Shown here: piece after piece, positions 2,701 through 20,606 of the stretch
How positions within the stretch are numbered: position 1 is the first letter of the stretch
Layout: the number at the start of each line of letters is the position of its first letter
Virus record (IMG/VR): IMGVR_UViG_3300044847_000013
Location: 1-34,320 of that record
Reading direction: 5' to 3' (one strand)
DNA length: 34,320 nt
From: a virus
Lineage: Duplodnaviria; Caudoviricetes
Notes under the pieces: model-generated
The model's input: the letters and a program-made list of their open reading frames with translations, nothing else
Database searches by the model: none
What the model was told of the DNA's origin: nothing
Program-made: the position numbers and the translations under genes

Positions 2701-3383
2701 TGAACGCACCTGCTCAATCCGACATGCTCGTCATTCCCGACGATTCGAGCATCGCAAACCGCCTAATCTGCCGCGTCAATTCCGTGGCCATCAAGGCCGC
2801 CTTCCCTTTCATCGCTGAAGACGACGTGCGCTTCTATCTGTGCGGCGTAAACATCCGTCCTCTTGACGACGGCGGGGTCATGATCGTTGCCACCGACGGA
2901 CACCGCTTCGTCATTGTCCGCGATCCGAACGGCTACGCTGAAACGGAAGTAATCGCCGCAGTCTCGAAGGATGCAATCAAGCATGCCGACGCAAAGGTGA
3001 CCTTCGATGTCATGAACAACGGCTCGGCCGTCTGGAACGACATAGCGACGCAACCCGTGTTCGTCCAACCTGGGAAGTCGGTGATCAACGGAGATTTTCC
3101 GCGTATCGAGAGCGTGATTGACTGCACGGGCTATCTCGAAGGCATCAGCGGCGCGGTCAACATGAACTTCCTCGCCGACGTGCTGAAAATCAAGATGGGG
3201 ACCAAGGCGCCGGCCATTCGGTTTTTCTCCCGTGACGAGGATTCGCCGCTTCTGTTCCTGCTCTCTGGGATCGGAGAAGTCGAGGTGATCGGCGGAATCA
3301 TGAAGGTTCGCGACGCCTTGCAATGGCTGCCGACATGGTTGCCGCCGCGCGGTGAATTCAAGTTGCAGCAGGAGTCCGCATGA
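2700..3383 (+). CDS. DNA polymerase III beta-clamp-like phage protein (partial clamp fold)
   Basis: DDVRFYLCGV, IVATDGHRF and GDFPRIESVI resemble the DnaN central-domain motifs. At 227 aa it is shorter than a full DnaN. Confidence 0.7.
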   Translation: MNAPAQSDMLVIPDDSSIANRLICRVNSVAIKAAFPFIAEDDVRFYLCGVNIRPLDDGGVMIVATDGHRFVIVRDPNGYAETEVIAAVSKDAIKHADAKVTFDVMNNGSAVWNDIATQPVFVQPGKSVINGDFPRIESVIDCTGYLEGISGAVNMNFLADVLKIKMGTKAPAIRFFSRDEDSPLLFLLSGIGEVEVIGGIMKVRDALQWLPTWLPPRGEFKLQQESA

Positions 3384-3682
3384 GGCGCATCTACATCAGC
3401 GGCCCAATGACAGGTTTGCCGGGACTTAATTTTCCAGCGTTCCACGCCGAGGCCGCCCGCCTGCGAGCCATCGGCTACGACGTGGTCAATCCGGCCGAGC
3501 TCAGCCCGGACCAGAACGCCAGTTGGCACCAGTGCATGCGCCGCGACTTGGCCGCCCTGCTGACTTGTGACACGTTGGCTTTACTTGAGGGATGGACCAC
3601 CTCTGCAGGCGCCCACCTGGAAATGCACGTCGCCCACCGTGTGGGAATGGAGATCGTGATTGCGAGCGAGGTGATCGAGTGA
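3380..3682 (+). CDS. DUF4406 family protein (nucleoside deoxyribosyltransferase-like fold)
   Basis: RIYISGPMTG, N.PAFHAEAARLR, VVNPAE, CD.L.LLEGW..S.GA.LE motifs. ATGA overlap with the previous gene. Confidence 0.88.
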   Translation: MRRIYISGPMTGLPGLNFPAFHAEAARLRAIGYDVVNPAELSPDQNASWHQCMRRDLAALLTCDTLALLEGWTTSAGAHLEMHVAHRVGMEIVIASEVIE

Positions 3683-3733
3683 ACAAAGCGCTAAGTGGCG
3701 ACGGGCAAGCGCAGCTTTAGCGCCGAGTTCGGC
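3678..3733 (-). repeat. attC-like site 0 (short, degenerate)
   Basis: AGTGAAC-aaagc-GCTAAG...CTT[T]AGC-gccga-GTTCGGC. Same 5-nt spacers and extra base position as the other sites, but the cores are non-consensus. Confidence 0.5.
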
Positions 3734-3751
3734 GCGATCGGGAGAGAGAAA

Positions 3752-3958
3752 ATGGAACCTGAATTCACTGAATTGTCTAGAGCGGCGCTGCTGTGGGTGC
3801 TGTGGCATCACCAGGGCGGCAGCAGCCCCGTGGGGCAGCCGATCCGCTTTGCTCTCGGCATGGGTGCGCACGACCCACTGAGCGAAGAGCAAGTGCAGAA
3901 GGCTCGGAGGTGGGCGGCTCTCACGAAATCCGAGACGCGCGATTTTCACGGGCGCTGA
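3752..3958 (+). CDS. Hypothetical protein, cassette 0 (68 aa)
   Basis: ATG 3752 with GGGAGAGAG RBS right after site 0; stops 5 nt before site 1. Confidence 0.65.
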   Translation: MEPEFTELSRAALLWVLWHHQGGSSPVGQPIRFALGMGAHDPLSEEQVQKARRWAALTKSETRDFHGR

Positions 3959-3962
3959 TCAT

Positions 3963-4047
3963 GAGGAACATGTAGGTAACGGGCGGCGCGGGGCGGCCAG
4001 AAGAAAGCGCCCCGCTTATTTACGTCCCGTTGACCGGATTGTTAGCG
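3963..4047 (-). repeat. attC-like site 1
   Basis: GAGGAAC-atgta-GGTAACGGG...CCCGTT[G]ACC-ggatt-GTTAGCG. Confidence 0.8.
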
Positions 4048-4071
4048 GGCGCGGTAGAAGCGGAGAACACG

Positions 4072-4317
4072 ATGACCAGAGAAGAATGGAAAGCCAGAGC
4101 AGCCACCCGGTACGCGGAGCGACTTGGCGTAACGGGAGACGAAGCGGGACGGCTGGCTCAGGAGCTTTACGACGGTCAAGACGGCGAGTTTTGCGAATAC
4201 GCGAACTATGACCCTGAAGGATGCGCCGACGAGGACATTGCCGAGCGCTCCTGCGGCGAAGAGGACGACGAAGAAATGGACGATGCGACCAGGTACGCGG
4301 CGCTGGGCTGCATGTGA
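4072..4317 (+). CDS. Acidic hypothetical protein, cassette 1 (81 aa)
   Basis: ATG 4072 after GGAG RBS; very D/E-rich C-terminal half; stop immediately before site 2. Confidence 0.7.
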   Translation: MTREEWKARAATRYAERLGVTGDEAGRLAQELYDGQDGEFCEYANYDPEGCADEDIAERSCGEEDDEEMDDATRYAALGCM

Positions 4318-4318
4318 C

Positions 4319-4410
4319 TGCTAACAACAGCGTAACCTGCAGCCGCGCGGAAGAGGATGAAGCGGAGTAGCGCCCCGCTTTCGGGCGTCAGGTTGACCGT
4401 AGAGTTAGAA
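4319..4410 (-). repeat. attC-like site 2
   Basis: TGCTAAC-aacag-CGTAACCTG...CAGGTT[G]ACC-gtaga-GTTAGAA. Confidence 0.85.
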
Positions 4411-4432
4411 GGCCCGACCACGAGACGAAAAG

Positions 4433-5275
4433 ATGCGCGACCCCTATAAGATTACCGAGCCGACATGCATCAGCTTCAGCGGCGGACGCACCAGCGGCTA
4501 CATGCTGTGGCGCGTGCTGCGGAGCAATGGCGGCCTGCCCGCCGATGCCACGGTGTGCTTCGCCAACACCGGCAAAGAGGAAGAGGCAACGCTGCGCTTT
4601 GTGCGCGACTGTGCCGAACGGTGGGGCGTACCGATTACCTGGTTGGAATTCCGCGACGATGACGCCGGGTTTGCCGTGGTGGATTTTGAGACCGCCAGCC
4701 GGGATGGCGAACCGTTTGAGGCGCTGATTCGCAAGCGGAATTACCTGCCGAATCCGGTGGCGCGGTTCTGCACAGTCGAGATGAAGATCCTGACCATTGA
4801 GCGGCACTTGAAGGCGAGCGGCTGGGACGACTGGGTGAGCATGGTTGGCGTGCGCGCCGACGAGCCGCGCCGAGTTGCCAAGATGCGCGCTGACCCGAAA
4901 GGCGGGCGAGCCAGTGCGACCCGAGCGCTGCCCCTAGCCGATGACGACATTGACGCAGCGCAGGTGGGCGCGTTCTGGCGGGCGCAGCCGTTCGACCTGG
5001 AACTGCCGAACATGAACGGCACGACGGTGCACGGCAACTGCGACCTGTGCTTTTTGAAAGGGGCCGGCCAAGTGTTGAGCCTGATTGCGGAGAAGCCGAG
5101 CCGGGCGACGTGGTGGGCGCGGATGGAAAGCAGCATCACGAACGCCAAGATCCAGAACGGCGGACGGTTTCGGAGTGACCGCCCGAGTTATGAGCAGATG
5201 GTGACGTTCGCCACAGCGCAGGCCGACGCTTTCGGCTACGAAGACGAAGGCATCGCATGCTTCTGCGGCGACTGA
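4433..5275 (+). CDS. PAPS-reductase-like / PP-loop adenine-nucleotide alpha-hydrolase family protein, cassette 2
   Basis: ISFSGGRTS PP-loop, FANTGKE, RFCTVEMKI, GVRADEPRR, GNCDLCFLK and terminal CFCGD. Confidence 0.85.
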   Translation: MRDPYKITEPTCISFSGGRTSGYMLWRVLRSNGGLPADATVCFANTGKEEEATLRFVRDCAERWGVPITWLEFRDDDAGFAVVDFETASRDGEPFEALIRKRNYLPNPVARFCTVEMKILTIERHLKASGWDDWVSMVGVRADEPRRVAKMRADPKGGRASATRALPLADDDIDAAQVGAFWRAQPFDLELPNMNGTTVHGNCDLCFLKGAGQVLSLIAEKPSRATWWARMESSITNAKIQNGGRFRSDRPSYEQMVTFATAQADAFGYEDEGIACFCGD

Positions 5276-5279
5276 CGCC

Positions 5280-5364
5280 TTCTAACGAATAGTTAAGCAG
5301 CGGCGCGAGGCTGGTTCAGAAACGCGCCCCGCTTAAAACCGTCAGCTTCATCGTAGTGTTAGGC
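5280..5364 (-). repeat. attC-like site 3
   Basis: TTCTAAC-gaata-GTTAAGCAG...CAGCTT[C]ATC-gtagt-GTTAGGC; 5282-5335 is identical to 5761-5814 (54 bp). Confidence 0.85.
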
Positions 5365-5387
5365 TGGTTACTACAACGAGAGGAAAG

Positions 5388-5582
5388 ATGATGTACGGAT
5401 GCAGATCGCTGGACGATGACGAGCTCGTCGAAGAGGGCGACATCATAAAGGACGTTGAGGCCGGAGAGTACCGCGAGGTTGCCGTCGATTCGTTCGATGC
5501 GCTGGCCATCGGTCTGGATGCTGGCGCGGTGCGCAAGTGGGACAACGTCAACGATGTGCTGCGTCGGGTGTCGGTAACGTGA
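5388..5582 (+). CDS. Acidic hypothetical protein, cassette 3 first ORF
   Basis: GAGAGGA RBS after site 3; 64 aa, D/E-rich. Confidence 0.7.
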   Translation: MMYGCRSLDDDELVEEGDIIKDVEAGEYREVAVDSFDALAIGLDAGAVRKWDNVNDVLRRVSVT

Positions 5583-5596
5583 CGCCTATCTTAATT

Positions 5597-5764
5597 ATGG
5601 CCAGAGGGCAATATGAACTATGGCTATGTGAAAAAGTGGACGGGGCGCTATCCCCGGTTCCTGGGACCGGCCCGCTCTCTCTGCCGCCAGACTGGCGCGA
5701 TGCGATCCGCGAGGCGGACAGGCAGCGCGAATTGTCTCGTGGGGCTGAATATGACGCCGCCTAA
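5597..5764 (+). CDS. Hypothetical protein, cassette 3 second ORF (55 aa)
   Basis: ATG 5597 in the frame of the listed 5537..5764 ORF; TAA stop lies in the GCCTAAC core of site 4; no clear RBS. Confidence 0.45.
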   Translation: MARGQYELWLCEKVDGALSPVPGTGPLSLPPDWRDAIREADRQRELSRGAEYDAA

Positions 5765-5844
5765 CGAATAGTTAAGCAGCGGCGCGAGGCTGGTTCAGAA
5801 ACGCGCCCCGCTTACGTTACGTCTGCTTCAACGTTTTGTTGGGC
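5759..5844 (-). repeat. attC-like site 4
   Basis: GCCTAAC-gaata-GTTAAGCAG...CTGCTT[C]AAC-gtttt-GTTGGGC. Confidence 0.85.
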
Positions 5845-5865
5845 TGGTATCTACGGAGAAAGAAA

Positions 5866-6033
5866 ATGTTTGTGATGATCCACGAGAGCGGCGACATGGT
5901 TCTATTGAAAGAACTGACTGATAACGACACCAATGCGGCAGACGACGGCATTGTCGATCTGCTGGATGTCTCAACCGCAGACAAGCCGCTGCGGTATTTC
6001 AATGGCGAGTGGGAAGAAATTGAATCCGCCTAA
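5866..6033 (+). CDS. Acidic hypothetical protein, cassette 4 (55 aa)
   Basis: ATG 5866 after ACGGAGAAAG RBS; TAA stop in the core of site 5. Confidence 0.7.
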   Translation: MFVMIHESGDMVLLKELTDNDTNAADDGIVDLLDVSTADKPLRYFNGEWEEIESA

Positions 6034-6117
6034 CGAGTAGGTAACATGCAACCGCGCTGTGCGGTTGATCGAAGAAGCGCCCCGCTTCCGGTTGTCAGGT
6101 TGACCGGCATGTTGGGC
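6028..6117 (-). repeat. attC-like site 5
   Basis: GCCTAAC-gagta-GGTAACATG...CAGGTT[G]ACC-ggcat-GTTGGGC. Confidence 0.85.
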
Positions 6118-6144
6118 TAGTGGATACAACGAAAGGAAAAGGCA

Positions 6145-6612
6145 ATGGGAGTTTCGACAAACGGAGAGATTTTTTACGGGGTTGTCTTCGAGGAGGACTA
6201 CGAATTTCCGTGGGACAAAGAGCATGACGGCGATATTGACGCCTGGTGGCTCTACGGAGTACATGGATTCAAGCATTCGTTCGAACTCTACGATGCGATG
6301 GGCAATTGCCTGAACGGCCGCGAGCCGAGCAGCGAGGAAAGCGGCCGCTACTTCGACGAAAGCCGCGCGTTTGTTGAAGCGCACCCGCTGCCGGTGGAGT
6401 TGGTGAATTACTGTTCCGGCGACTACCCGATGTACGCACTGGCGGTTCCAGGCACCGTTATTACGGCGCGACGCGGCTACCCCGCAGAGTTCGACCCGGC
6501 CACGCTGACGGTAAAGATGGAGCAGGTCGATGCGCTGAGGGAGTTCTGTGCCGACCACGAAATTGAGTTTCCAAAGGAGCCCGCGTGGCTGCTTACCAGC
6601 TGCTGGGACTAG
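6145..6612 (+). CDS. Acidic hypothetical protein, cassette 5 (155 aa)
   Basis: AAAGGA RBS; fills the interval between sites 5 and 6 exactly. Confidence 0.8.
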   Translation: MGVSTNGEIFYGVVFEEDYEFPWDKEHDGDIDAWWLYGVHGFKHSFELYDAMGNCLNGREPSSEESGRYFDESRAFVEAHPLPVELVNYCSGDYPMYALAVPGTVITARRGYPAEFDPATLTVKMEQVDALREFCADHEIEFPKEPAWLLTSCWD

Positions 6613-6613
6613 C

Positions 6614-6701
6614 ACATAACGTCACGGTAAGCGGCCGCGGCGCTCTCACGGTTGAAGAGACGCCCTGCTTACCTTACGTCGCGTTGACGCAAATGTTAGG
6701 C
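6614..6701 (-). repeat. attC-like site 6
   Basis: ACATAAC-gtcac-GGTAAGCG...CGCGTT[G]ACG-caaat-GTTAGGC. Confidence 0.78.
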
Positions 6702-6713
6702 ATGGAGGCGACG

Positions 6714-7019
6714 ATGTTTGGCGACCCGAACGACGCTAGAAGCTACGAAGACTGGATGAACGACATGGCGACCAACAAACCACAACGGATGCCACGAGGC
6801 TGGCAAGCGCAATACCAACTGCGCTGCGACTGCTGCGGGAAGTTTGTTCGACCGGGCGAACCGGGCGGCAGTTGGGTGATGGTGCCGGGGACGGACTGGA
6901 ACGCAGAAGACGAGCGCGAACGCTGCCCGGCCTGCACCGAAAAACACGGGCAAGCGCGCTGTGGGCTTGGGTACGTTGAACACCTGTGCTGCGGCATGAA
7001 TGCGATGCCTAACGTCTGA
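6714..7019 (+). CDS. Cys-rich putative zinc-binding protein, cassette 6 (101 aa)
   Basis: ATG 6714 after GGAGG; CDCC, CPAC and C..HLCC clusters; ends PNV* through the core of site 7. Confidence 0.7.
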   Translation: MFGDPNDARSYEDWMNDMATNKPQRMPRGWQAQYQLRCDCCGKFVRPGEPGGSWVMVPGTDWNAEDERERCPACTEKHGQARCGLGYVEHLCCGMNAMPNV

Positions 7020-7030
7020 ATTAACCGGCA
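7007..7030 (-). repeat. attC-like site 7, left half only (truncated)
   Basis: GCCTAAC-gtctg-AATTAACCGG with no matching ...GTTRRRY arm before the next RBS. Confidence 0.65.
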
Positions 7031-7057
7031 CGCCGACCACGAAACGAACAAGGAGAG

Positions 7058-7330
7058 ATGATGATGATGATGATGATGCAAGAACAGATTGAAGGCGCGC
7101 AGAGCGAGAACGAGGTGCTGCGTAATGCGTTGCGCTGGCGCGAGCCTGATGAGGAGCCGCGCGAAGGACAGGAGGTGTTGGCGGTGATCTACCCGTACAA
7201 CAACACGAGCAACCGCATGAACATCGTTCATGCGCGCTACTGCGGCGGCAAGTTCGTGGATGACGCGGACGGCAGAGACCTGCACCCGGCGCACTATTGG
7301 ATGCCGGCGCCCGTGATCCCCGGGGCCTAA
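7058..7330 (+). CDS. DUF551-like hypothetical protein, cassette 7
   Basis: WREPDEEPREGQEVL...HYWMPAP pattern typical of DUF551; AAGGAG RBS; begins with seven ATG codons; TAA stop in the core of site 8. Confidence 0.65.
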   Translation: MMMMMMMQEQIEGAQSENEVLRNALRWREPDEEPREGQEVLAVIYPYNNTSNRMNIVHARYCGGKFVDDADGRDLHPAHYWMPAPVIPGA

Positions 7331-7403
7331 CGTGGGAGCTAAGGCGCCCACAGCGGCGGACAGGCTGTGCCGCTGTGGGTCGCCCTTGAGCGACAGGTTA
7401 GGC
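7325..7403 (-). repeat. attC-like site 8
   Basis: GCCTAAC-gtggga-GCTAAGGCGCCCACAGCGGC...GCCGCTGTGGG[T]CGC[C]CTT[G]AGC-gacag-GTTAGGC; long stem with three bulged bases. Confidence 0.9.
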
Positions 7404-7426
7404 CACGCTGTGGCCGGAGCGAGACG

Positions 7427-7651
7427 ATGGCAACACACCAACGATGCGAATGGAACTGCGGCAGCACTGCCTGCGATGCGCCGAAACGACCGCCTCTCGA
7501 AGATGGCCCAGCAATCAACCTGGGCCGCTACGCTGGCACCTATGGCGGCTACACGACGGAACCGCCGAAGCCGCGAACCTTGTGGCAACGCTTCCAAGCG
7601 TGGCGCGAGCGCACCGGGTTCTTCATGGACGGCCGCGATGGTGGCATGTGA
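7427..7651 (+). CDS. Hypothetical protein, cassette 8 (74 aa)
   Basis: ATG 7427 after GGAG; stops 4 nt before site 9. Confidence 0.6.
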   Translation: MATHQRCEWNCGSTACDAPKRPPLEDGPAINLGRYAGTYGGYTTEPPKPRTLWQRFQAWRERTGFFMDGRDGGM

Positions 7652-7655
7652 ACGG

Positions 7656-7746
7656 GCCTAACGCTTAGCTGTGGGACCGCTGCGCGCGGCATTTACTACG
7701 GAGCGAAGGCCGCTGTTCGGCGGCCCACTCGAAGCGCCTGTTAGGT
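7656..7746 (-). repeat. attC-like site 9 (L boxes degenerate)
   Basis: GCCTAAC-gctta-GCTGTGGGACCGC...GCGGCCCACTCGAAGCGCCT-GTTAGGT. Confidence 0.7.
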
Positions 7747-7764
7747 GCATTGCGGAGAAAGAAC

Positions 7765-8079
7765 ATGGTGTTGAAACGAAGCATTGAGCAGTGGCGCGGC
7801 TGTGATCCGGAGGCAATGGCGTACCACCTGAGCGAGGCGGCAATCATGTACGCCTTCCGTGACGCGAAGGCCGACATCTTGGCGCTGAATGCGGAGAACG
7901 AAAGGCTGCGAATGTCTATCAGCGATTCGATGATTGATTACGTTGAGAAATCGCATGGTATACGCCGTGACCATAAAGGGCGCTGGTGGGTTGAACTTAC
8001 AATCAATACGACGCTCGGAGGGAAAAAGTCGCTGCGGGAGACAATTTATGCGGCAATGAAAGAGCGGCCTAACGAGTAG
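7765..8079 (+). CDS. Hypothetical protein, cassette 9 (104 aa)
   Basis: ATG 7765 after CGGAGAAAG; ends PNE* through the core of site 10. Confidence 0.7.
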   Translation: MVLKRSIEQWRGCDPEAMAYHLSEAAIMYAFRDAKADILALNAENERLRMSISDSMIDYVEKSHGIRRDHKGRWWVELTINTTLGGKKSLRETIYAAMKERPNE

Positions 8080-8158
8080 GTAACCGGCACCGGCGAAGGC
8101 CGGTAATTACAACGCAATGCCCTGCTTACCGGTGTCCGCGTTGACCGGATTGTTAGGC
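8067..8158 (-). repeat. attC-like site 10
   Basis: GCCTAAC-gagta-GGTAACCGGCACCGG...CCGGTG[T]CCG[C]GTT[G]ACC-ggatt-GTTAGGC. Confidence 0.9.
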
Positions 8159-8178
8159 GGGTAACTACGGAGAAAAAT

Positions 8179-8445
8179 ATGCAGAGCAATGAAAATTTTG
8201 AATTTGACGCAATATGCCTTGGTGCCGTTGGACTTACCGCGGCATGGCGGCGCCACAAGGTTGACGTGAAGAGAAGGTACGGGCCGATGCTGATTATCAG
8301 CCAGTGCTGCACTGTCGATGAAGGCGTGTGCCTTCCCGCCTCTGACGTAACCGTTACCACGGTGCAGGGATTGCTCGCTCTGCGCGAAGCAATCGACGAG
8401 GCATTGCGCTATGACAGGCCGGAACAATCGACGCCTAACAAATAG
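8179..8445 (+). CDS. Hypothetical protein, cassette 10 (88 aa)
   Basis: ACGGAGAAAAAT-ATG leader; ends PNK* through the terminal core. Confidence 0.7.
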   Translation: MQSNENFEFDAICLGAVGLTAAWRRHKVDVKRRYGPMLIISQCCTVDEGVCLPASDVTVTTVQGLLALREAIDEALRYDRPEQSTPNK

Positions 8446-8492
8446 TGGACATCAATCGCGACGTCTACCCTGGCGCATGACGTCTACTCTGG
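8433..8492 (-). other. Candidate attI-like terminal site (single core plus two direct repeats)
   Basis: GCCTAAC core (8433-8439) without a palindromic partner, followed by GACGTCTACCCTGG (8460-8473) and GACGTCTACTCTGG (8479-8492). Confidence 0.45.
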
Positions 8493-8579
8493 AAACGGCG
8501 TCACGAGAGATCCTTGCGGCGCAAACGACTTGGCAAATGTGGCAGAGAGCAACTCAATAAACAACCGAGAAACACGGCA

Positions 8580-8768
8580 ATGAACGAAACAACCGATGAC
8601 CGCGTGATCTGGCGACAGGATCTCCAAGTGCAAATGCATGTCTGCTCCGAGACCATGCGCCGCTACATCCGCGACCACAAAGTGCCGCCGCCAGACGTTG
8701 CAATCAGCCGGCAGCGGATGGGCTGGCGGCTCTCCACCCTGCGGGCCGCCGGGATCAACCTGGCGTGA
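8580..8768 (+). CDS. Excisionase / AlpA-like HTH protein
   Basis: 62 aa, basic, with an SETMRRYIRDHKVPPP...GWR pattern; convergent on and overlapping the 3' end of int. Confidence 0.7.
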   Translation: MNETTDDRVIWRQDLQVQMHVCSETMRRYIRDHKVPPPDVAISRQRMGWRLSTLRAAGINLA

Positions 8769-9948
8769 CCTGTGTTGCCTCTTTGCCCTCACAGGCATCC
8801 AGCCAATCCGCCCACGCCTGCAACATCGTCCGCCTCTCGGCCAGGTACTCGGCGCGGTTGTACGTTGCCCGGATGCGGTCCTCTGGCATGTGCGACAACT
8901 GCCGCTCGATGGCATCGGCGCTATATCCGCGCTCGTTGGCCCAGGTACTGCCGATAGTCCGCCAGCCGTGTCCGGTCAGTCGCCCCTTGTATCCGATCCT
9001 ATGGATCAGGTAGAGGATCGCGTTCTCTGACATTGGTCGATCAATCCGCCGGTCGCACGGGAACACATAGGGACCACCGCGTGATCTGGCGCGCATCTCC
9101 CTAATAACAGCAATCGCCTGGCGTGGCAGTGGCACGACATGGCCGCGGCCCATCTTCATCCGGCCATCAGGAAGTCGCCAAAGCGCATCCGCCTCGTCAA
9201 TCTCCTCCCAACGCATCATGCGAAGTTCCGCCGTCCGACTCCAGGTATAAGCGAGGAGACGGCAGGCAAGCACGGAATTCAGATCGCGTTCAAGGCGCAG
9301 TCGGTCAAGAAAGGCCGGAACCTCGTTCAGTTCGAGCGCCGCGAAGTGCGTAACCGCCGCCTTCGTGAATGCCTTTTCCGGGCGAATGAGCGCCGCCGGG
9401 TTGAGCACCGCATAGCCGTGCTCGACAGCCCAATCCCATACCTGCCCTGACCACATGCGGACCTTGCGTACATAGTCGTGCTTTCCGGAAGCATCCATCT
9501 TCCGCAGTTCATCCAGCAACTCGTCGCGGGTGACGCTGCCGATCTGGCGCTCTCCCAATACGGGGTAAAGGTGCATTTCCAGGCCGCGCATAACATTGGC
9601 GCGGTAGGAATCGGAGATGTCCTTGCGCCCTCCCCAATACTCCTGCGCCGCCTGTTTGAGCGTCACCCCCTTGCGCATTGCTTTGCGCGGAGCCATAGGG
9701 TCGCCACCATCGCGCAGAGTGGCCTTCAAGGCATCGCGCTTGATCCGCGCTTCGGCCAGCGATACTTCCGGGTATGGCCCCAGGCTCATGGTCTGCTGCT
9801 TTCCAGCGAGGCGGTAGGCAACGCGCCAGGTCTTGGCGCCAGAGGGGCTGACGAAGAGATGCAGACCGCCGCCATCAAATAGCTTCTGCGGTCTGTCGGA
9901 TGGCCGGACAGCCTTGCATTTGCTGTCGGTTAGCTGATTTGTAGGCAT
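8755..9948 (-). CDS. int: P4-type tyrosine integrase with N-terminal arm-binding domain
   Basis: LTDSKCK...KLFDGGGLHLFVSPSGAKTWR arm domain; catalytic R (SRTAEL), K (RMKM), HGWR, LSH and YNRAEY. Confidence 0.95.
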   Translation of the reverse strand: MPTNQLTDSKCKAVRPSDRPQKLFDGGGLHLFVSPSGAKTWRVAYRLAGKQQTMSLGPYPEVSLAEARIKRDALKATLRDGGDPMAPRKAMRKGVTLKQAAQEYWGGRKDISDSYRANVMRGLEMHLYPVLGERQIGSVTRDELLDELRKMDASGKHDYVRKVRMWSGQVWDWAVEHGYAVLNPAALIRPEKAFTKAAVTHFAALELNEVPAFLDRLRLERDLNSVLACRLLAYTWSRTAELRMMRWEEIDEADALWRLPDGRMKMGRGHVVPLPRQAIAVIREMRARSRGGPYVFPCDRRIDRPMSENAILYLIHRIGYKGRLTGHGWRTIGSTWANERGYSADAIERQLSHMPEDRIRATYNRAEYLAERRTMLQAWADWLDACEGKEATQVTPG

Positions 9949-10210
9949 TTTGGCTCCCGGAGCGATCCGATACCAACACCGATGCCTACAGACTGCCCGT
10001 GTTGAGTGGGCGTTTTACGTGGCGGCCTGTGGGGAGTGGTTGGCGTAGTGATCGCCGAAAGCCGCTATTCTACTTGCGCTTTGGCTGTTTTTGGTGGTCA
10101 GTCGTTGCCTATGTCGCGCCGTCTCTGGCGGATGGGGTGGGTGCCACACATAATGAATAGAAGCGGTTTTCGGAGATGAGTTTTACCCGATGCCGTCAAA
10201 AATGCCTACA
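9940..10210. other. attP: tRNA-3'-end-like core flanked by arm-type integrase sites
   Basis: Core 10126-10141 reads CCCACCCCATCCGCCA on the - strand (tRNA-Ser-like 3' end, G-CCA). 12-mers CCGATACCAACA/CCGATGCCTACA (9967-9990) and CCGATGCCGTCA/AAAATGCCTACA (10187-10210), plus an inverted copy TGTAGGCATTTT (9940-9951). Confidence 0.78.
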
Positions 10211-10364
10211 GGCTCGCGTTGCACCATCCGAGGAAACGGACAGCGCAGAGATAGCAAGTTCCAATGCTGCGCCACGGGCAGCAGAACTCGATTGCTCCGG
10301 GAACGGATGCCTCCCTCCGGTGCTGTGACCGGTACTCAACGATCCAGATCACCTTGCCCACGGC

Positions 10365-13428: not shown

Positions 13429-16400
13429 TCACCACTCCACTTTGCCGGCACCAGCGAAGCCGCGGCCCACGGTCGCAGACAACTGGTAGGCGTTATAACG
13501 CAGCGGGTTCGGCACCGCGCTGACCGGATTACTGACCATCCACGTGTCCGTCACTTGCCCAGCGAGCAGAGTCCTGGCGTCTGCGAAAATGGCATAGACG
13601 GAGGTGTTGACTGTCCATCCGCCGTAGGTACCGCCACCCCCTACCTTTGTCCAGGAGGCGCCGCCCCACCGCCACACGCCGTCCGTCGTGCCGCCGTAGG
13701 TGGCGGCAACCAACGCACCGCCGCATATGGCCAGCAGGACGTTCGCCGATGTCCAACTGCTGTTGACTCCGTCCCCGCCGATCTTGGTCCAGGCAGAGCC
13801 ATTCCAAGACCAGCACTCGCCGTCTCCGCTGTCAGAACCGAGCCCTGCGTACAGGTTGGAACCGTCTGAAGCCAAGCCGGTCACCACTTCGTAGCCAGTC
13901 GTCCATCCGCTGTTCAGGCTGTCCCCGCCTACTTGGGTCCAAGTGCCATCAGCGTTGCGCCGCCAAACCTCGCCGTCCCCAGTGGAACTACCAAGCCCGG
14001 CGTATAGCAGGCCGCCGTGGACACACAGCGAGGAGACCTGCTCGTAGTTTGTGTTCCAGCTGCCACCCAGCCCGTCGCCGCCGATCTTGTACCAGTTGTC
14101 TCCAAGCGCCCAGACCTCAGCGTCTCCCGCGCTGCCTCCGACCCCGGCGACCAGCTGGTCGTTGAGCACGGCCAAGCACAGCACATCGATCTTGCCGGCA
14201 TCGTTCCAACTGCTATTGACGCCATCGCCGCCGATCTTGGCCCAAGAATTTCCGTCAAAGGCCCAAAGCTCGGCGGTAGTGGAACCAGAGGAGCCGATGC
14301 CGGCATACACCTTGCCGCGGAACGCGAGCAAGCAATTCACGCGGCGGTAGGTCTCTGCGGCCCACGACCCATTCCTGCCGTCGCCGCCCACCATCTCCCA
14401 CGTCTGCCCGCGGAAGCGCCACACTGCAGCAGCGCTTCCGCTGGTGGCGCTGAGGCCAGCATAGATGTCGTCGCCGTCTTTCAGGAGAGATGAAACCTTG
14501 GTCACGGTCGCGTACGTGGAGGCGTAAGACGTCGATCCGTCCAGGGTAGCTATCTGCAGCCAGTCCGGCGCCGTGAAGTCCGTTGCTTGATTTGCCGCGC
14601 TGTAAGTGGCAGCCGGTGAGGTAAGACCAGAGATGGTCCTGGCAACCGTGCCGTCAAGCCGCAGGATATCCACCTCGTAAGCCTCGGTAGCCTCAACCAT
14701 CGAAGCGTCGACGTAGTCCATCCACGCACCGCCACTGCGCGTCCGGCGAACGAACGTCAGCGCGAAGTCGCCGTTTGGCTGCAACGTCCCAGCGACCAAC
14801 GACGGGGCATAGGGTCTGAGAACGTTGGCCGCATAAGTGAAGACGAATGGACTTCCCGGAGACGTCGAGCCAAGTGACGTTGCGCGGTACAAGCGCTCCA
14901 CGCCGTTATCGGAAACGTCTAATGCCGCCTTGACGACCGCAGACATGTTGAGGAATACCACAAGGTCGCCTGATGAGTGTCCGGCGGTCATGTGCTCTGT
15001 ACCACGCCGGCCGCGCAACCACCCAGTAAGTGTCCACGACCCATCGACCTCCTGGAAAGCCGATGTGTATTGCGCCAATTCCCATCCATCGCTGCCACTG
15101 CGGATTGCAACTGCATTGCCCCCATTGAGAACGTTGGTCTTGGATAGCGTCTCAAGCATGCCGTCGTTGACGAGCCGCACATTCAGCAAAGAGGACTCAT
15201 CGAATACATTGCCGCCATGCCAATCGGGCATAGCGTTGGTAGCCGCACCCCAAACCACATCGCCAGAGAGCGCAGCAAGATCAAGGTAACTGGACCCGCC
15301 GTCCGGGCTGCGCTTTACAAGCGCGCCGTTCCAGGTGGTAAAGCCCGGGTATCCAGAGCCTGCCAGATAGATTCCGCTGCTATTCTGAGAATCGATAAGA
15401 GCTGGCGTATCTATGATAAATAGCGCGGTCGGGCTGAGCGTATCAATCGTCTGCGGCGTCACAGGCGACGACACGCCAGCGGCTGTCTGCGTATAAACGG
15501 AAGCGTCCTCAGTCACGCACTCCCAGAAGATAAGAGAACCCTGCTCGCTCTTCTTGGTGATCCTGACCAAGTATCCATTCACTACTACAACGTCAGTAGG
15601 CTCGATACCAGCGTATTTGTGTGTGGTGATGAATTTTCCGAGTGTCCGCCCAGTCCAAGCGTTTGACATCAACGTCTCGACAGTTTGTTTTGCCTTGTCG
15701 TCGGACAAAACCATGGGCAGTTCAATCTTAACCTGCTGTTGAGTAGCAACCGTCGTGCGGGTTGCGGACTGCTCGCCAACCTGATAGTCCTGATTACGAC
15801 TTGCATATGTGACGTGGACTGCCTTTGGAAGGTCCCACTCTTGAGCTCTGGTGAGCGTTAGAACATCCGGCAACTCTGATCCGTATTCCCTAGCGGCCAG
15901 ATCATCTTCTGTAATAGTGGCCACAGACGCTCCGCCACGCGGAACGTATTTGATAGTTTGCCCTGTCTCCGTGGCATCAAAGAAATAGGCGGTGCGCAAA
16001 GGCTCAATACCGGAGCGCGCTGCTGTCTGGGTCGTCAGGAAGAAACCATCAACAGGAATGCCAGCTAGCCTACTGACATCAATCTCTCCTGGTGTGAGGC
16101 CAGCGCGCAAATTTATGTCCCCAACAACATCGGATAGGTCAGCGGCCGTTGGGTCCATGCGATCCAGAGCCCAACGCCGTAACACTTGCCGCCCAAGCGC
16201 CGCCACATAGTCCAGTGCGAACAGGTAACCGGCCCCCGGGAAGGCCACCACGTCGACGCACGAAGAGCAGCTGAGCGTCTTGTATGTGGAGCCATCCTGC
16301 AGGCGGATGCCGACTATCTGGCTCGGTGCGGCAGACTTCCACACCCACATGACATCACGGTCTGGGTCATAGAAGATGTCGTCTGGCGCGAACGGGAGGG

Positions 16401-19281: not shown

Positions 19282-20606
19282 GCCCGAATCTCCACAATCG
19301 GGATAGAGTTCCATCCATAGATTTGCCCGGCGTCCCTGTGCCCTTCCAATTTGTCGGTATCGAAGCGACATGGCACGTCGAATTCGCAGGAGACCTGCAG
19401 AACATCGGTGATTTGCGGGAAGACGCTGATCGTTCCTCCCGATGTCCGTGCTGAATAGGCAGTCCCGTTGATTCCAGAGAGATCGAAATAGTCGGTTGCC
19501 GCATTGGCGACGGTGAAGGTCAGGCCATTGACCTGCGTCATGCCAACCACGCCGGAGAGATACGCCAAGGAACCGTTCGCGCGACCATGGGCGGCTGAAT
19601 AGACCCGTACCGGATTGGTCTGGGTGATCCCGTACTTGATCGCAGAGGCCCCGGAGGTGTAGGCGGTGTAGCCGGTCCCGTTGATCCCGGAGAGCTCAAA
19701 GCCCTTGGTGGTCTTGTTGGCGACGGTGAAATACAGGTTATTGACCTGCGTCATGCCGCCGACCGTCTCGAGCTTGACCAGATCGCCATTGACGAACGTA
19801 TGGGCATCGGCATGCACCCACACCGGGTTGGTCTGGGCGATGCCGTAGCGGGTCGCTGTGCCGCCGGAGGAATAGGCCGTGTAGGCGGTAGTGTCGATCC
19901 CGAGCGAGTAGGTATTCGCGTCAATGACCGTCACCGTCGCGGTGACGCCGTTCAACTGCGTCATTCCGACGATTCCGGAATGGGTGATGCGGTCGCCGGT
20001 GGTAAAGGTGTGGCCTGTTGCCGTCACCACGCCAGGGTTCGCCTGGGTGATCCCGGTGATCGTTTTGGCCACGTTCGCATCGACCGCCTTGACCACGTTT
20101 GCATCGATGGTCTTGGTCACGTCCGGTTGAAAGGTGATCAGCCCGGTGGTGGTGTCGATGGCGATCTGTCCGGCGCCGGCCCCTACGGTCAAGGGAGTGT
20201 CATTTCGATAGCCGACCACGGTCCCGGCCACCGGCTTGCGGATGGCGCGAATTTCCGACAGGGCGCCGGCCGCGTAAAGCTTGCCGATCTGGTAAGTAGA
20301 ACCACCGTTACCAACTCCGGTGCCAAGAACGCCATCCGCCTTGGCAACCTGGTAGTCGATCCAGTCCTTGAAGCGGAAGCCGTGCGCTTTTCCTTTCACC
20401 GAACGGAAGAAGGCAAAAAGGACTTCCATTTGCGCGCGGGTACGTACAGCATGGGATGCGTCCCATCGACCGCGTGATTGAGACCAGTTGCTGTTTCGTT
20501 GCTCAAACCCTGAGCGAACAACGATCACCGTTGTGCTGTACTCGGGGCCGCCAACTACGCCAGAAGAGATGTCATCCGGGAAGCGCGGGGTTTCTAGGAA
20601 GGCCAT
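19278..20606 (-). CDS. Distal tail protein (DUF2460 family) with three inserted repeat domains
   Basis: FLETPRFPDDIS.G..GGPEYST, GFRFKDWIDY and EFDVPCRFDTD termini; three ~70-aa internal repeats. Confidence 0.9.
   Translation of the reverse strand: MAFLETPRFPDDISSGVVGGPEYSTTVIVVRSGFEQRNSNWSQSRGRWDASHAVRTRAQMEVLFAFFRSVKGKAHGFRFKDWIDYQVAKADGVLGTGVGNGGSTYQIGKLYAAGALSEIRAIRKPVAGTVVGYRNDTPLTVGAGAGQIAIDTTTGLITFQPDVTKTIDANVVKAVDANVAKTITGITQANPGVVTATGHTFTTGDRITHSGIVGMTQLNGVTATVTVIDANTYSLGIDTTAYTAYSSGGTATRYGIAQTNPVWVHADAHTFVNGDLVKLETVGGMTQVNNLYFTVANKTTKGFELSGINGTGYTAYTSGASAIKYGITQTNPVRVYSAAHGRANGSLAYLSGVVGMTQVNGLTFTVANAATDYFDLSGINGTAYSARTSGGTISVFPQITDVLQVSCEFDVPCRFDTDKLEGHRDAGQIYGWNSIPIVEIRA

Follow-up and report, generated by a model that had tools for sequence, protein, structure and literature searches.

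An array of eleven inverted integron-type cassettes ending in a likely attI site in the early operon of a temperate phage

In the usual teaching, an integron cassette is a gene followed by its attC site, with a choice of strand that secures expression from the cassette promoter. Do the cassettes carried by phages keep to this layout? Clusters of attC sites without an integron integrase (CALINs) have already been published in phage genomes, and five of six phage attC sites recombined with attI1 via IntI1 (Qi et al. 2023, PMC9892861). The accessible part of that report describes cassettes with the typical bacterial layout or in mixed directions, and it mentions neither systematic inversion nor an attI-like site closing an array in an early operon, nor a phage clade of IntI. 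In the reverse integrons of Treponema (PMC7691350), according to the sections at hand, the integrase gene is flipped, so that intI and cassette genes point in the same direction, and the usual gene-to-attC order is kept, with the stop codon of the gene in R'' of the downstream attC.

Here we describe an array of eleven integron-type cassettes (3684-8438) within the early operon of a temperate phage, represented by a partial genome of 34,320 nucleotides (the window). Eleven small accessory genes are packed between attC-type hairpins, all running opposite to the genes of bacterial integrons, and the 3' end of the array (8433-8492) carries an attI-like site with direct repeats (Table 1). With 10 sites in 4.5 kb and no IntI, the locus has the make-up of a CALIN (at least two attC sites within a few kb, no adjoining intI). 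Like the phage CALINs of PMC9892861, it consists of single-gene cassettes bounded by attC in a phage without IntI; its 11 units make it longer than those in the accessible part of that account. With canonical integrons (PMC5027507; PMC8946536) it shares AAC/GTT cores, an unpaired spacer of 5-6 nt, extra-helical G and T, lengths within 57-141 bp, a predicted crossover between AA and C, and a likely attI with direct repeats. In contrast to them, each gene shares the predicted recombinogenic strand and comes after its hairpin, the likely attI lies 3' of the genes and no cassette promoter was found; in phage relatives intI, where present, is co-directional with the genes. Nor is this a reverse integron of the Treponema type, in which intI is flipped and gene-to-attC order unchanged: in the window the order is reversed, and, compared with the available description of Treponema, the phage-type intI keeps its place beside attI while the genes are flipped relative to attC. 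No description of systematic gene/attC inversion in phage arrays was found in the literature searched.

Table 1. Sites, cassette genes and neighbouring genes of the window (T + 6 bp + G: extra-helical bases six pairs apart; cassette limits in brackets).
Feature	Position	Strand	Description	Matches
Early phage genes	42..3682	+	RecT/Bet, YqaJ/RecE-like exonuclease, beta-clamp-like protein, DUF4406; 5' of array	Pfam and PHROG
S0	3678..3733	+	Short degenerate attC-like hairpin, 56 nt; GAAC/GTTC core, T replaces extra-helical G; presumably oldest array end	
Cassette 0 gene (3684-3968)	3752..3958	+	68 aa; DNA relatives occur in Xanthomonas phages	no family
S1	3963..4047	+	attC, inverted (T + 6 bp + G), extra-helical bases on + strand; non-consensus left core	
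Cassette 1 gene (3969-4324)	4072..4317	+	81 aa	no family
S2	4319..4410	+	attC, inverted (T + 6 bp + G)	
Cassette 2 gene (4325-5285)	4433..5275	+	PAPS-reductase-like / SspD-like, 280 aa; 10-bp end pairing	PF01507, phrog_424, PADLOC SspD E 4e-14
S3	5280..5364	+	attC, inverted (T + 6 bp + C); 54 nt common to S4	
Cassette 3 (5286-5764)	5388..5764	+	64-aa ORF and possible second ORF, 55 aa	no family
S4	5759..5844	+	attC, inverted (T + 6 bp + C)	
Cassette 4 gene (5765-6033)	5866..6033	+	55 aa; stop is TAA of next core	
S5	6028..6117	+	attC, inverted (T + 6 bp + G); 83-87% similar to attC of three bacterial genome loci	
Cassette 5 gene (6034-6619)	6145..6612	+	155 aa; 174 unnamed homologues	no family
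S6	6614..6701	+	attC, inverted (T + 6 bp + G)	
Cassette 6 gene (6620-7012)	6714..7019	+	about 101 aa; passes through core, stop inside S7	homologues in L376, L411, L428
S7	7007..7057	+	attC left half only, no right arm; runs into ribosome-binding site and ATG run	
Cassette 7 gene (7013-7330)	7058..7330	+	about 90 aa; cassette likely locked in place, because hairpin S7 is incomplete	no family
S8	7325..7403	+	attC, inverted; highest hairpin stability, -29 kcal/mol	
Cassette 8 gene (7331-7661)	7427..7651	+	74 aa	homologous cassette in L339
S9	7656..7746	+	attC, inverted; L box irregular	
Cassette 9 gene (7662-8072)	7765..8079	+	104 aa; stop inside S10	
S10	8067..8158	+	attC, inverted; extra-helical T, C, G	
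Cassette 10 gene (8073-8438)	8179..8445	+	88 aa	78% identical cassette in L003/L004
S11	8433..8492	-	Terminal attI-like site: core, 5-nt spacer, degenerate L box, 14-nt direct repeat (8460-8473, 8479-8492)	
62-aa gene	8580..8768	+	At the spot where relatives have intI; possibly excisionase-like, judged solely from position and look	no family
Phage integrase	8755..9948	-	Lysogeny integrase with arm-binding domain, not an integron integrase	PF13356, PF22022, PF00589; PRK09692-type, no TIGR02249 match

The original prediction held that these units had been inserted by site-specific recombination and are not merely repeated terminators, and both the attC geometry and the breaks at AAC in other phages support it. 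Following the attC definition of PMC5027507 (extra-helical G, T and further features), we found AAC and GTT cores at all 10 full sites, with the extended RYYYAAC/GTTRRRY form missed by S0 and by the left core of S1. The extra-helical base is G in 7/10 (C in S3 and S4, T in S0), and a T lies six pairs from it in 6/10 (S1-S6), 7 nt off in S8 and S10, and is missing in S0 and S9. Nine of the ten full sites (S1-S10 without the half-site S7) measure 79-92 nt and S0 56 nt; attC length, unpaired central spacer and imperfect hairpin are as the definition asks. The extra-helical bases are on the coding strand at every full site. Folding energy was uninformative for the choice of strand, the + strand being lower at only 5/9 intact sites, and purines on the + strand make up 56/90 of the spacer bases. 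The hairpin bodies are mosaic, with segments of 11-54 nt in common (S1-S5, S1/S10, S5/S10, S6/S10, S3/S4), and decay is visible in S0, S7 and S9. At 8/12 window sites a stop codon lies +4 to +6 from AAC, yet without general enrichment (39/250 viral versus 24/225 genome sites, p=0.14; window and six inverted genome loci left out). Judged by their cores and extra-helical features, the array hairpins are integron attC sites.

It had further been claimed that each right core is complementary to the left core of the site that follows, as expected of an attC that is complete only in the excised circle. All 12 core motifs named in support were found at their exact positions, and all six pairs are exact. 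Over the nine intact sites, pairing with the NEXT left core sums to 60 bp of contiguous Watson-Crick pairs, above chance: the 362,880 possible permutations average 47.9 bp (sd 2.9) and reach at least 60 bp in 168 cases (p=4.6e-4). The same nine sites pair over 45 bp within the array (48 with S0), and a looser measure, ungapped matches at positions 4-10, gives p=0.014. Circles closed in silico at AAC have a summed folding energy of -199.8 kcal/mol; the array forms give -178.3, and the permutations average -182.1. As good a sum is reached by 395 of the 362,880 permutations (p=1.1e-3), and by site there is no gain at 3/9, the S5 circle being clearly worse. The pairing signal is carried by three of the six pairs (4041/4320, 4404/5277, 6695/7005), each above all other left cores. 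The cores at 5358 and 7397 tie with other left cores, and that at 8152 finds longer partners (9 bp) in the left cores of 5763 and 6032 than in its own (8 bp). Weaker ends beyond these six stand at 5838 (one G-T wobble) and 7740 (6 bp); the original list also lacks the degenerate site at 3682-3727 and does not say that the site at 7011 is without a right half. The cassette ends are complementary overall, weakly so in cassettes 4, 5 and 9; cassette 5 (at 6111), singled out beforehand as an exception, is one only in part, as its ends hold a further GCTAGT match past a 2-nt bulge. The proposed cut between AA and C of the + strand is probably correct, because here the + strand would be the recombinogenic one. 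Complementary ends are the form a circle would take, not proof of present-day circle formation, and no circle or deletion joint was listed in the only public run covering the region, which is available as contigs and is possibly the source sample; no RNA run was listed as covering it. One contig of that run (5282-5790, depth 11.4 versus about 7-8) begins and ends with the same 30 nt; it was considered as a circle and rejected, as the S3/S4 repeat suffices. Positions 5791-6075 have no cover in this run.

Is the inversion peculiar to this phage? The rule that a gene stands upstream of its own attC, opposite the recombinogenic strand, does not hold in the window, where all genes are on the extra-helical strand; a point that the original prediction does not make is that, seen from the genes, the sites are turned round, and the hairpin therefore belongs to the gene following it. 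A single search pattern returned inverted and canonical sites at 24:4 in viral and 5:52 in bacterial genomes (Fisher p=2e-12), with 18/46 viral sites assigned to neither class. A gene starts on the extra-helical strand at 41/46 viral and 10/74 genome sites, and on the other strand at 1/46 and 21/74. Loci chosen with a ribosome-binding site in the search pattern are excluded from these orientation counts, and since the detector is strict, recovering 4-6 of the window's 10 sites, its counts for other loci are minimum values. Hairpin bodies average 0.68 identity between sites sharing only the downstream flank (33 pairs, not mutually independent, many of them at only 0.4-0.65), 0.505 between those sharing only the upstream flank (12 pairs) and 0.49 in the background. 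From these comparisons, the hairpin in other phage arrays moves along with the downstream gene, though the link is not constant: the window and L003 have unlike bodies upstream of cassette 10, and each copy of a duplicated gene in L004 has a body of its own. Between homologous cassettes of other phages the neighbours change at the AAC triplet, with unrelated sequence beyond, and the DNA likeness of cassette 10 to L003/L004 spans exactly 8152 (GTT) to 8439 (AAC). The bacterial look-alikes of S5 have their genes on the opposite strand; by sequence, S5 falls into a hairpin family that occurs in bacteria with the usual orientation.

Cassettes 2, 6, 8, 9 and 10 have homologues in other arrays, beside different neighbours, and 11/12 cassette ORFs gave no Pfam, PHROG or PADLOC match. 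The prophage L251 has RecT, YqaJ, an inverted array, a terminal site and intI, its last cassette being a 60% homologue of cassette 2. This PAPS-reductase-like gene is a cassette in the window, L251 and L083; in the family's 66 distinct phage loci, complementary ends of at least 6 bp were seen at only three, and a hairpin only in L083. L003 and L004 differ by 1,749 bp, or three cassettes, bounded by two near-identical bodies, so homology explains the difference as well as IntI does. Close relatives are scarce: L001/L002 have only the clamp-like gene in common and no array, metagenomes scanned with YqaJ yielded a single distant locus, and matches in cultured phages are limited to short gene pieces.

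No IntI was found on the contig, a partial genome (best tblastn E 0.27), and no intI stands beside the array, whereas in relatives intI adjoins the terminal site. The recombinase screen of other loci was seeded with the IntI of L343, which passes TIGR02249 with 427 bits versus a cut-off of 265. Four viral IntIs and that of prophage L251 form one clade (100/98). At 7/11 viral IntI loci, intI comes directly after a simple terminal site whose repeats lie at 31 and 50-52 nt. S11 resembles these IntI-linked sites in position, 5-nt spacer and two repeats 19 nt apart; its L box is degenerate, and its repeats, with core-like triplets 29 and 48 nt from the core, lie 2 nt nearer. Where other loci have a terminal site without intI, 6/9 lack a repeat at 29-31 nt (one of them counted with a repeat at 50 only), and the four small ORFs behind other phages' terminal sites gave no Pfam family. 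By this resemblance S11 is likely an attI docking site, and a true IntI of a phage clade is found, on sequence criteria, directly behind such sites in some relatives. An integron-type cassette promoter reading from attI into the array was not found and would run antisense to the genes; a scan of 3300-10300 for one promoter type, sigma-70-like, returned none.

We conclude, with a probability of roughly 0.8, that this is an eleven-cassette array of inverted attC sites with a likely attI at its end, whose cassettes were likely inserted singly as circles by an IntI absent from the contig. Each unit would read C-[hairpin]-GTT, ribosome-binding site, gene, AA. Once IntI had cut the + strand, in its folded form, between A and C, a well-paired R box would re-form where the two ends of the circle meet. 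New cassettes would enter at 8438, older ones decaying leftwards to S0. The inversion may be due to a single upstream phage promoter whose transcripts would cross the array in the direction of the docking site and, in relatives, continue into intI, which would oblige the genes to share the strand of intI; the resulting layout would be the reverse of the bacterial one with its own cassette promoter. The window phage may have lost intI or never had it. As its contig encodes no integron integrase, its genes are likely swapped by one borrowed from its host or another phage, an IntI of the host or of a co-infecting phage presumably acting in trans, and the phage RecT/YqaJ system may reshuffle hairpin halves by homology.

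Could the cassettes instead be relics of past IntI insertion, in an array that now changes mainly through RecT/YqaJ homologous recombination? The contig without IntI, RecT and YqaJ just 5' of the array, the mosaic bodies, the L003/L004 difference and the decay of S0, S7 and S9 would all fit. End pairing specific to single cassettes and beyond the consensus (10, 9 and 6 bp) would not arise from homology-driven swaps inside bodies, however, and AAC breaks next to unrelated sequence in other phages and the retention of a terminal site with repeats also speak against such a history; it appears possible but unlikely, and may accompany the main mechanism. That a recombinase other than IntI works on the hairpins, be it the neighbouring phage integrase or a Xer-like enzyme, is improbable. 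The phage integrase, 320 bp from S11, is the contig's sole tyrosine recombinase, and most of the viral arrays examined have no IntI within the flank analysed; but this enzyme possesses an arm-binding domain, with repeats of its own at 9967 and 10187, the sites have the extra-helical bases specific to IntI, and the recombinase adjoining the terminal site in the same site family is IntI.

Two further readings concern the hairpins themselves. Ordinary bacterial-type cassettes, each a gene followed by its own attC and taken over in the usual orientation from an integron of the host, would give identical end complementarity; circles drawn by the canonical model fold better than the array form in 6/7 cases, and S5 resembles bacterial attC. 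We nevertheless think this very improbable given the coding-strand position of the extra-helical bases, an attI-looking half-site at the 3' end of the genes, bodies that go with the downstream gene, the opposite gene strand at the bacterial look-alikes of S5, and a cargo of phage type whose PAPS-reductase family is mostly cassette-free in phages. Least credible are RNA elements, terminators or processing signals, without any role in recombination. Each hairpin does stand on the coding strand directly 5' of a ribosome-binding site, and repeated intergenic elements are frequent in operons of this kind; yet none of the ten bodies coincides with a terminator-like match (8 found, 5.8 expected), no Rfam family was found, and neither the pairing of NEXT-site cores nor the AAC breaks would be explained. 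A secondary RNA role beside recombination is possible.

What would an inverted array of phage cassettes mean for integrons? Tentatively, and at rather less than even odds, we suggest that temperate phages run a mirror-image integron of their own, with a phage IntI clade, an attI closing the early operon and inverted cassettes in a pool of their own. These cassettes could not be expressed from a bacterial cassette promoter and would be made from ordinary phage genes by prefixing a hairpin of a host family. A phage pool of opposite polarity would have one enzyme family serve two gene pools, separated by orientation alone, and inverted cassettes would be one site-specific way in which the small-gene mosaic of phage early regions could arise. 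The PAPS-reductase-like gene, a cassette in few loci, and the hairpin family of S5 touch on the question of where cassettes come from; if the suggestion is true, phage-made cassettes would be a place to watch cassette genesis.

Which strand of these hairpins would an integrase use? In the available part of Nivina et al. (PMC5027507), two extra-helical bases mark the recombinogenic attC strand, a G of the L box and, six pairs off, a T, and this strand is cut within AAC. In the eleven-cassette array, whose hairpin sites S0-S10 precede the terminal attI-like site S11, the extra-helical bases lie in the right arm of the + strand, which is also the coding strand. The integron integrase IntI would therefore cut the + strand, at the left core, and the order within a cassette would thus be hairpin, then gene. 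We base this assignment on the unpaired bases and not on folding energy, which by itself fails to distinguish the strands. Judged from sequence, the sites are attC sites reversed relative to their genes. S7 lacks a right arm and continues into seven ATG codons (within 7007-7080); a half-site 86% similar to it precedes an unrelated gene in another viral contig (L361, about 6245-6302, - strand). Genes of cassettes 6, 9 and 10 borrow their stop codons from the following site's spacer, which makes the C-terminus of these proteins depend on the neighbour. Such a stop codon is on offer at 8 of the 12 window sites, with no general enrichment among viral sites.

Sites of the array and associated features (window coordinates)
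Feature	Span	Left core (AAC)	Strand	Extra-helical bases or condition	Spacer stop codon used
S0		3682		decayed	
S1		3967	+	T + 6 bp + G	
S2		4323	+	T + 6 bp + G	
S3		5284	+	T + 6 bp + C	
S4		5763	+	T + 6 bp + C	
S5	6028-6117	6032	+	T + 6 bp + G	
S6		6618	+	T + 6 bp + G	
S7	7007-7057	7011		half-site	7017-7019 (cassette 6)
S8		7329	+	T seven nt from G	
S9		7660		irregular	
S10		8071	+	T seven nt from G	8077-8079 (cassette 9)
S11	8433-8492	8437			8443-8445 (cassette 10)
S11 direct repeat	8460-8492				
Phage integrase	8755-9948				

Is this inversion peculiar to one phage? Orientation was surveyed with a single site pattern that holds no gene information, in 125 of about 130 loci on genome contigs and in 61 loci on viral contigs, after removal of sites less than 400 nt from a contig edge (53 genome, 12 viral). 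Flanking ORFs were inverted, canonical (gene, then attC) or unresolved at 24, 4 and 18 viral sites versus 5, 52 and 17 genome sites (Fisher test on resolved sites, p=2e-12), counts that are not independent because some contigs are related. A ribosome-binding site with a gene start lies on the extra-helical strand at 41/46 viral but 10/74 genome sites, and on the opposite strand at 1/46 and 21/74. The longest such gene start falls inside the hairpin at 32 of the 46 viral sites, some perhaps being spurious upstream starts. The inverted layout is characteristic of phages. On genome contigs, the arrays that came out as inverted were L247, L264, L274, L281 and L288. The hairpin family of S5 and S2 also occurs in genome contigs (L291, L292 and L335, about 300-391) with genes on the opposite strand; by hairpin likeness, this is one site family of opposite polarity in phage and bacterial contigs. 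A contig of X1, the sole public sequencing run covering the region, is identical to 6076-6402, but the 18 letters by which it extends to the left differ from the window and resemble bacterial members of the S5 family, reflecting either a variant form of the hairpin or a tangle in the assembly.

Phage attC clusters without IntI, known as CALINs, have been described: Qi et al. 2023 (PMC9892861) list 17, with IntI1 active on 5/6 phage attC sites. Systematic inversion is not described in the available part of that paper. Reverse integrons, as presented in the accessible text of PMC7691350, differ from the window's layout, and the accessible passages of PMC8352920 do not mention phages. We found no inverted phage cassette arrays in the literature, subscription journals and bioRxiv supplements aside. 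The observation is real, and the array is a variant of the integron cassette system.

The original prediction held that the right core of one site pairs with the left core of the next, as a footprint of circular intermediates. Twelve left and ten right cores yield eleven units, and all six quoted core pairs are exact in the window. When each right core n is paired with left core n+1, the nine intact sites give 60 bp in total, a value reached by 168 of 362,880 permutations. Circles assembled in silico, each from body n with its own right core and the left core of the following site, have a summed folding energy of -199.8 kcal/mol versus -178.3 in the array, and 395 of 362,880 permutations are equally low. 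Circles fold better than permuted core combinations, so the view that they fold no better than random does not hold. The pairing signal is due mostly to cassettes 1, 2 and 6. Their quoted pairs are specific. The pairs of cassettes 3 and 8 are equalled by other cores, and cassette 10, exact in its own pair, gains one more base pair with either of two other left cores. For S4, S5 and S9, the circle form folds no better than the array form. Cassette 5, singled out as pairing poorly, needs amendment: its ends do share six further bases beyond a two-base bulge. No circle junctions were seen in the assembled contigs of X1.

Does a hairpin travel with its gene? Among 265 viral sites, 33 pairs alike only in the downstream flank have a mean body identity of 0.68 (six at least 0.91), and 12 pairs alike only in the upstream flank have 0.505 versus a background of 0.49. 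In ten pairs, selected from the top of the flank-sharing lists, likeness begins or ends at AAC or a few bases off. Cassette 10 recurs at a different rank in two viral contigs (L003/L004), with DNA likeness spanning GTT at 8152 to AAC at 8439. Some observations speak against a strict hairpin-gene link: the upstream body of cassette 10 differs between the window and L003, and L004 has one gene in two copies with different bodies. L003 and L004 differ by three cassettes (1,749 bp; L004 9890-11640) with near-identical bodies at both bounds; one of these extra cassettes is a 97% duplicate of an upstream gene with a different hairpin. Hairpin bodies in the window combine common segments in mosaic fashion, so homologous recombination likely contributes to array change.

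The window, a contig of 34,320 bases, is a partial genome of a temperate phage. Pfam and PHROG searches place RecT, a YqaJ exonuclease, a clamp-like protein and DUF4406 at its left side, followed by the arm-domain phage integrase, with lysis, tail and head genes beyond. Within the early operon, the array has DUF4406 on one side and the integrase on the other. The likely attP region of this integrase is flanked by repeats at 9967 and 10187 (within 9945-10214), and the tail genes hold internal repeat units of ~150 nt and 213 nt, at 13613-14400 and 19456-19979. Only one of 12 cassette ORFs was assigned a family (Pfam, PHROG, PADLOC): its product is PAPS-reductase-like, is also matched by SspD, and suggests DNA modification. 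In phages this family is mostly cassette-free, with complementary ends of at least 6 bp in 3 of 66 distinct loci and a hairpin beside the gene only in L083. The cassette 5 protein has 174 homologues, none named.

S11 lies 3' of the last gene and, like the final sites of other arrays, has a core, a spacer of 5 nt and a degenerate L box. Its 14-nt direct repeat has triplets 29 and 48 nt from the core, sharing the 19-nt step of the repeats at IntI-linked phage docking sites and resembling them in placement; attI1 has direct repeats as well (PMC8946536, available part). Alternatively, the repeat may serve as an operator or as a site for excisionase. Among nine other terminal sites that lack intI, a repeat stands at 29-30 nt in two. 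In the viral contig L343, the terminal site is directly followed by IntI (TIGR02249, 427 bits; cut-off 265), in the direction of the cassette genes. This IntI, used as query, yielded 11 IntI-bearing viral loci. Seven of them, picked by eye, have a terminal site just 5' of intI, its core-like repeats lying 31 and 50-52 nt away, and in three of the seven the site detector places inverted-type hairpins upstream. In a tree of 18 rows, without outside references, four viral IntIs and that of the prophage-like L251 form one clade (100/98). L251 combines RecT, RdgC and a YqaJ (36.5% to that of the window) with an inverted array, terminal site, intI and phage integrase, and the last unit of its array is a homologue of cassette 2 (60%). 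IntI was not found in the window, and the integrase encoded there is a lysogeny-type enzyme. In several arrays without intI (L339, L351, L362, L370, L376), the terminal site is followed by a small ORF of roughly 100 aa; Pfam returned no family for the four tested.

Site geometry, polarity, end pairing, linkage and the IntI of relatives are observed features of these arrays. Circular cassettes would be inserted at S11 by IntI acting in trans, and cassettes would age towards the left. No promoter for the array was found on the scanned stretch; expression may come from a phage promoter further upstream. The inversion of the genes would then result from array and intI being read in one operon.
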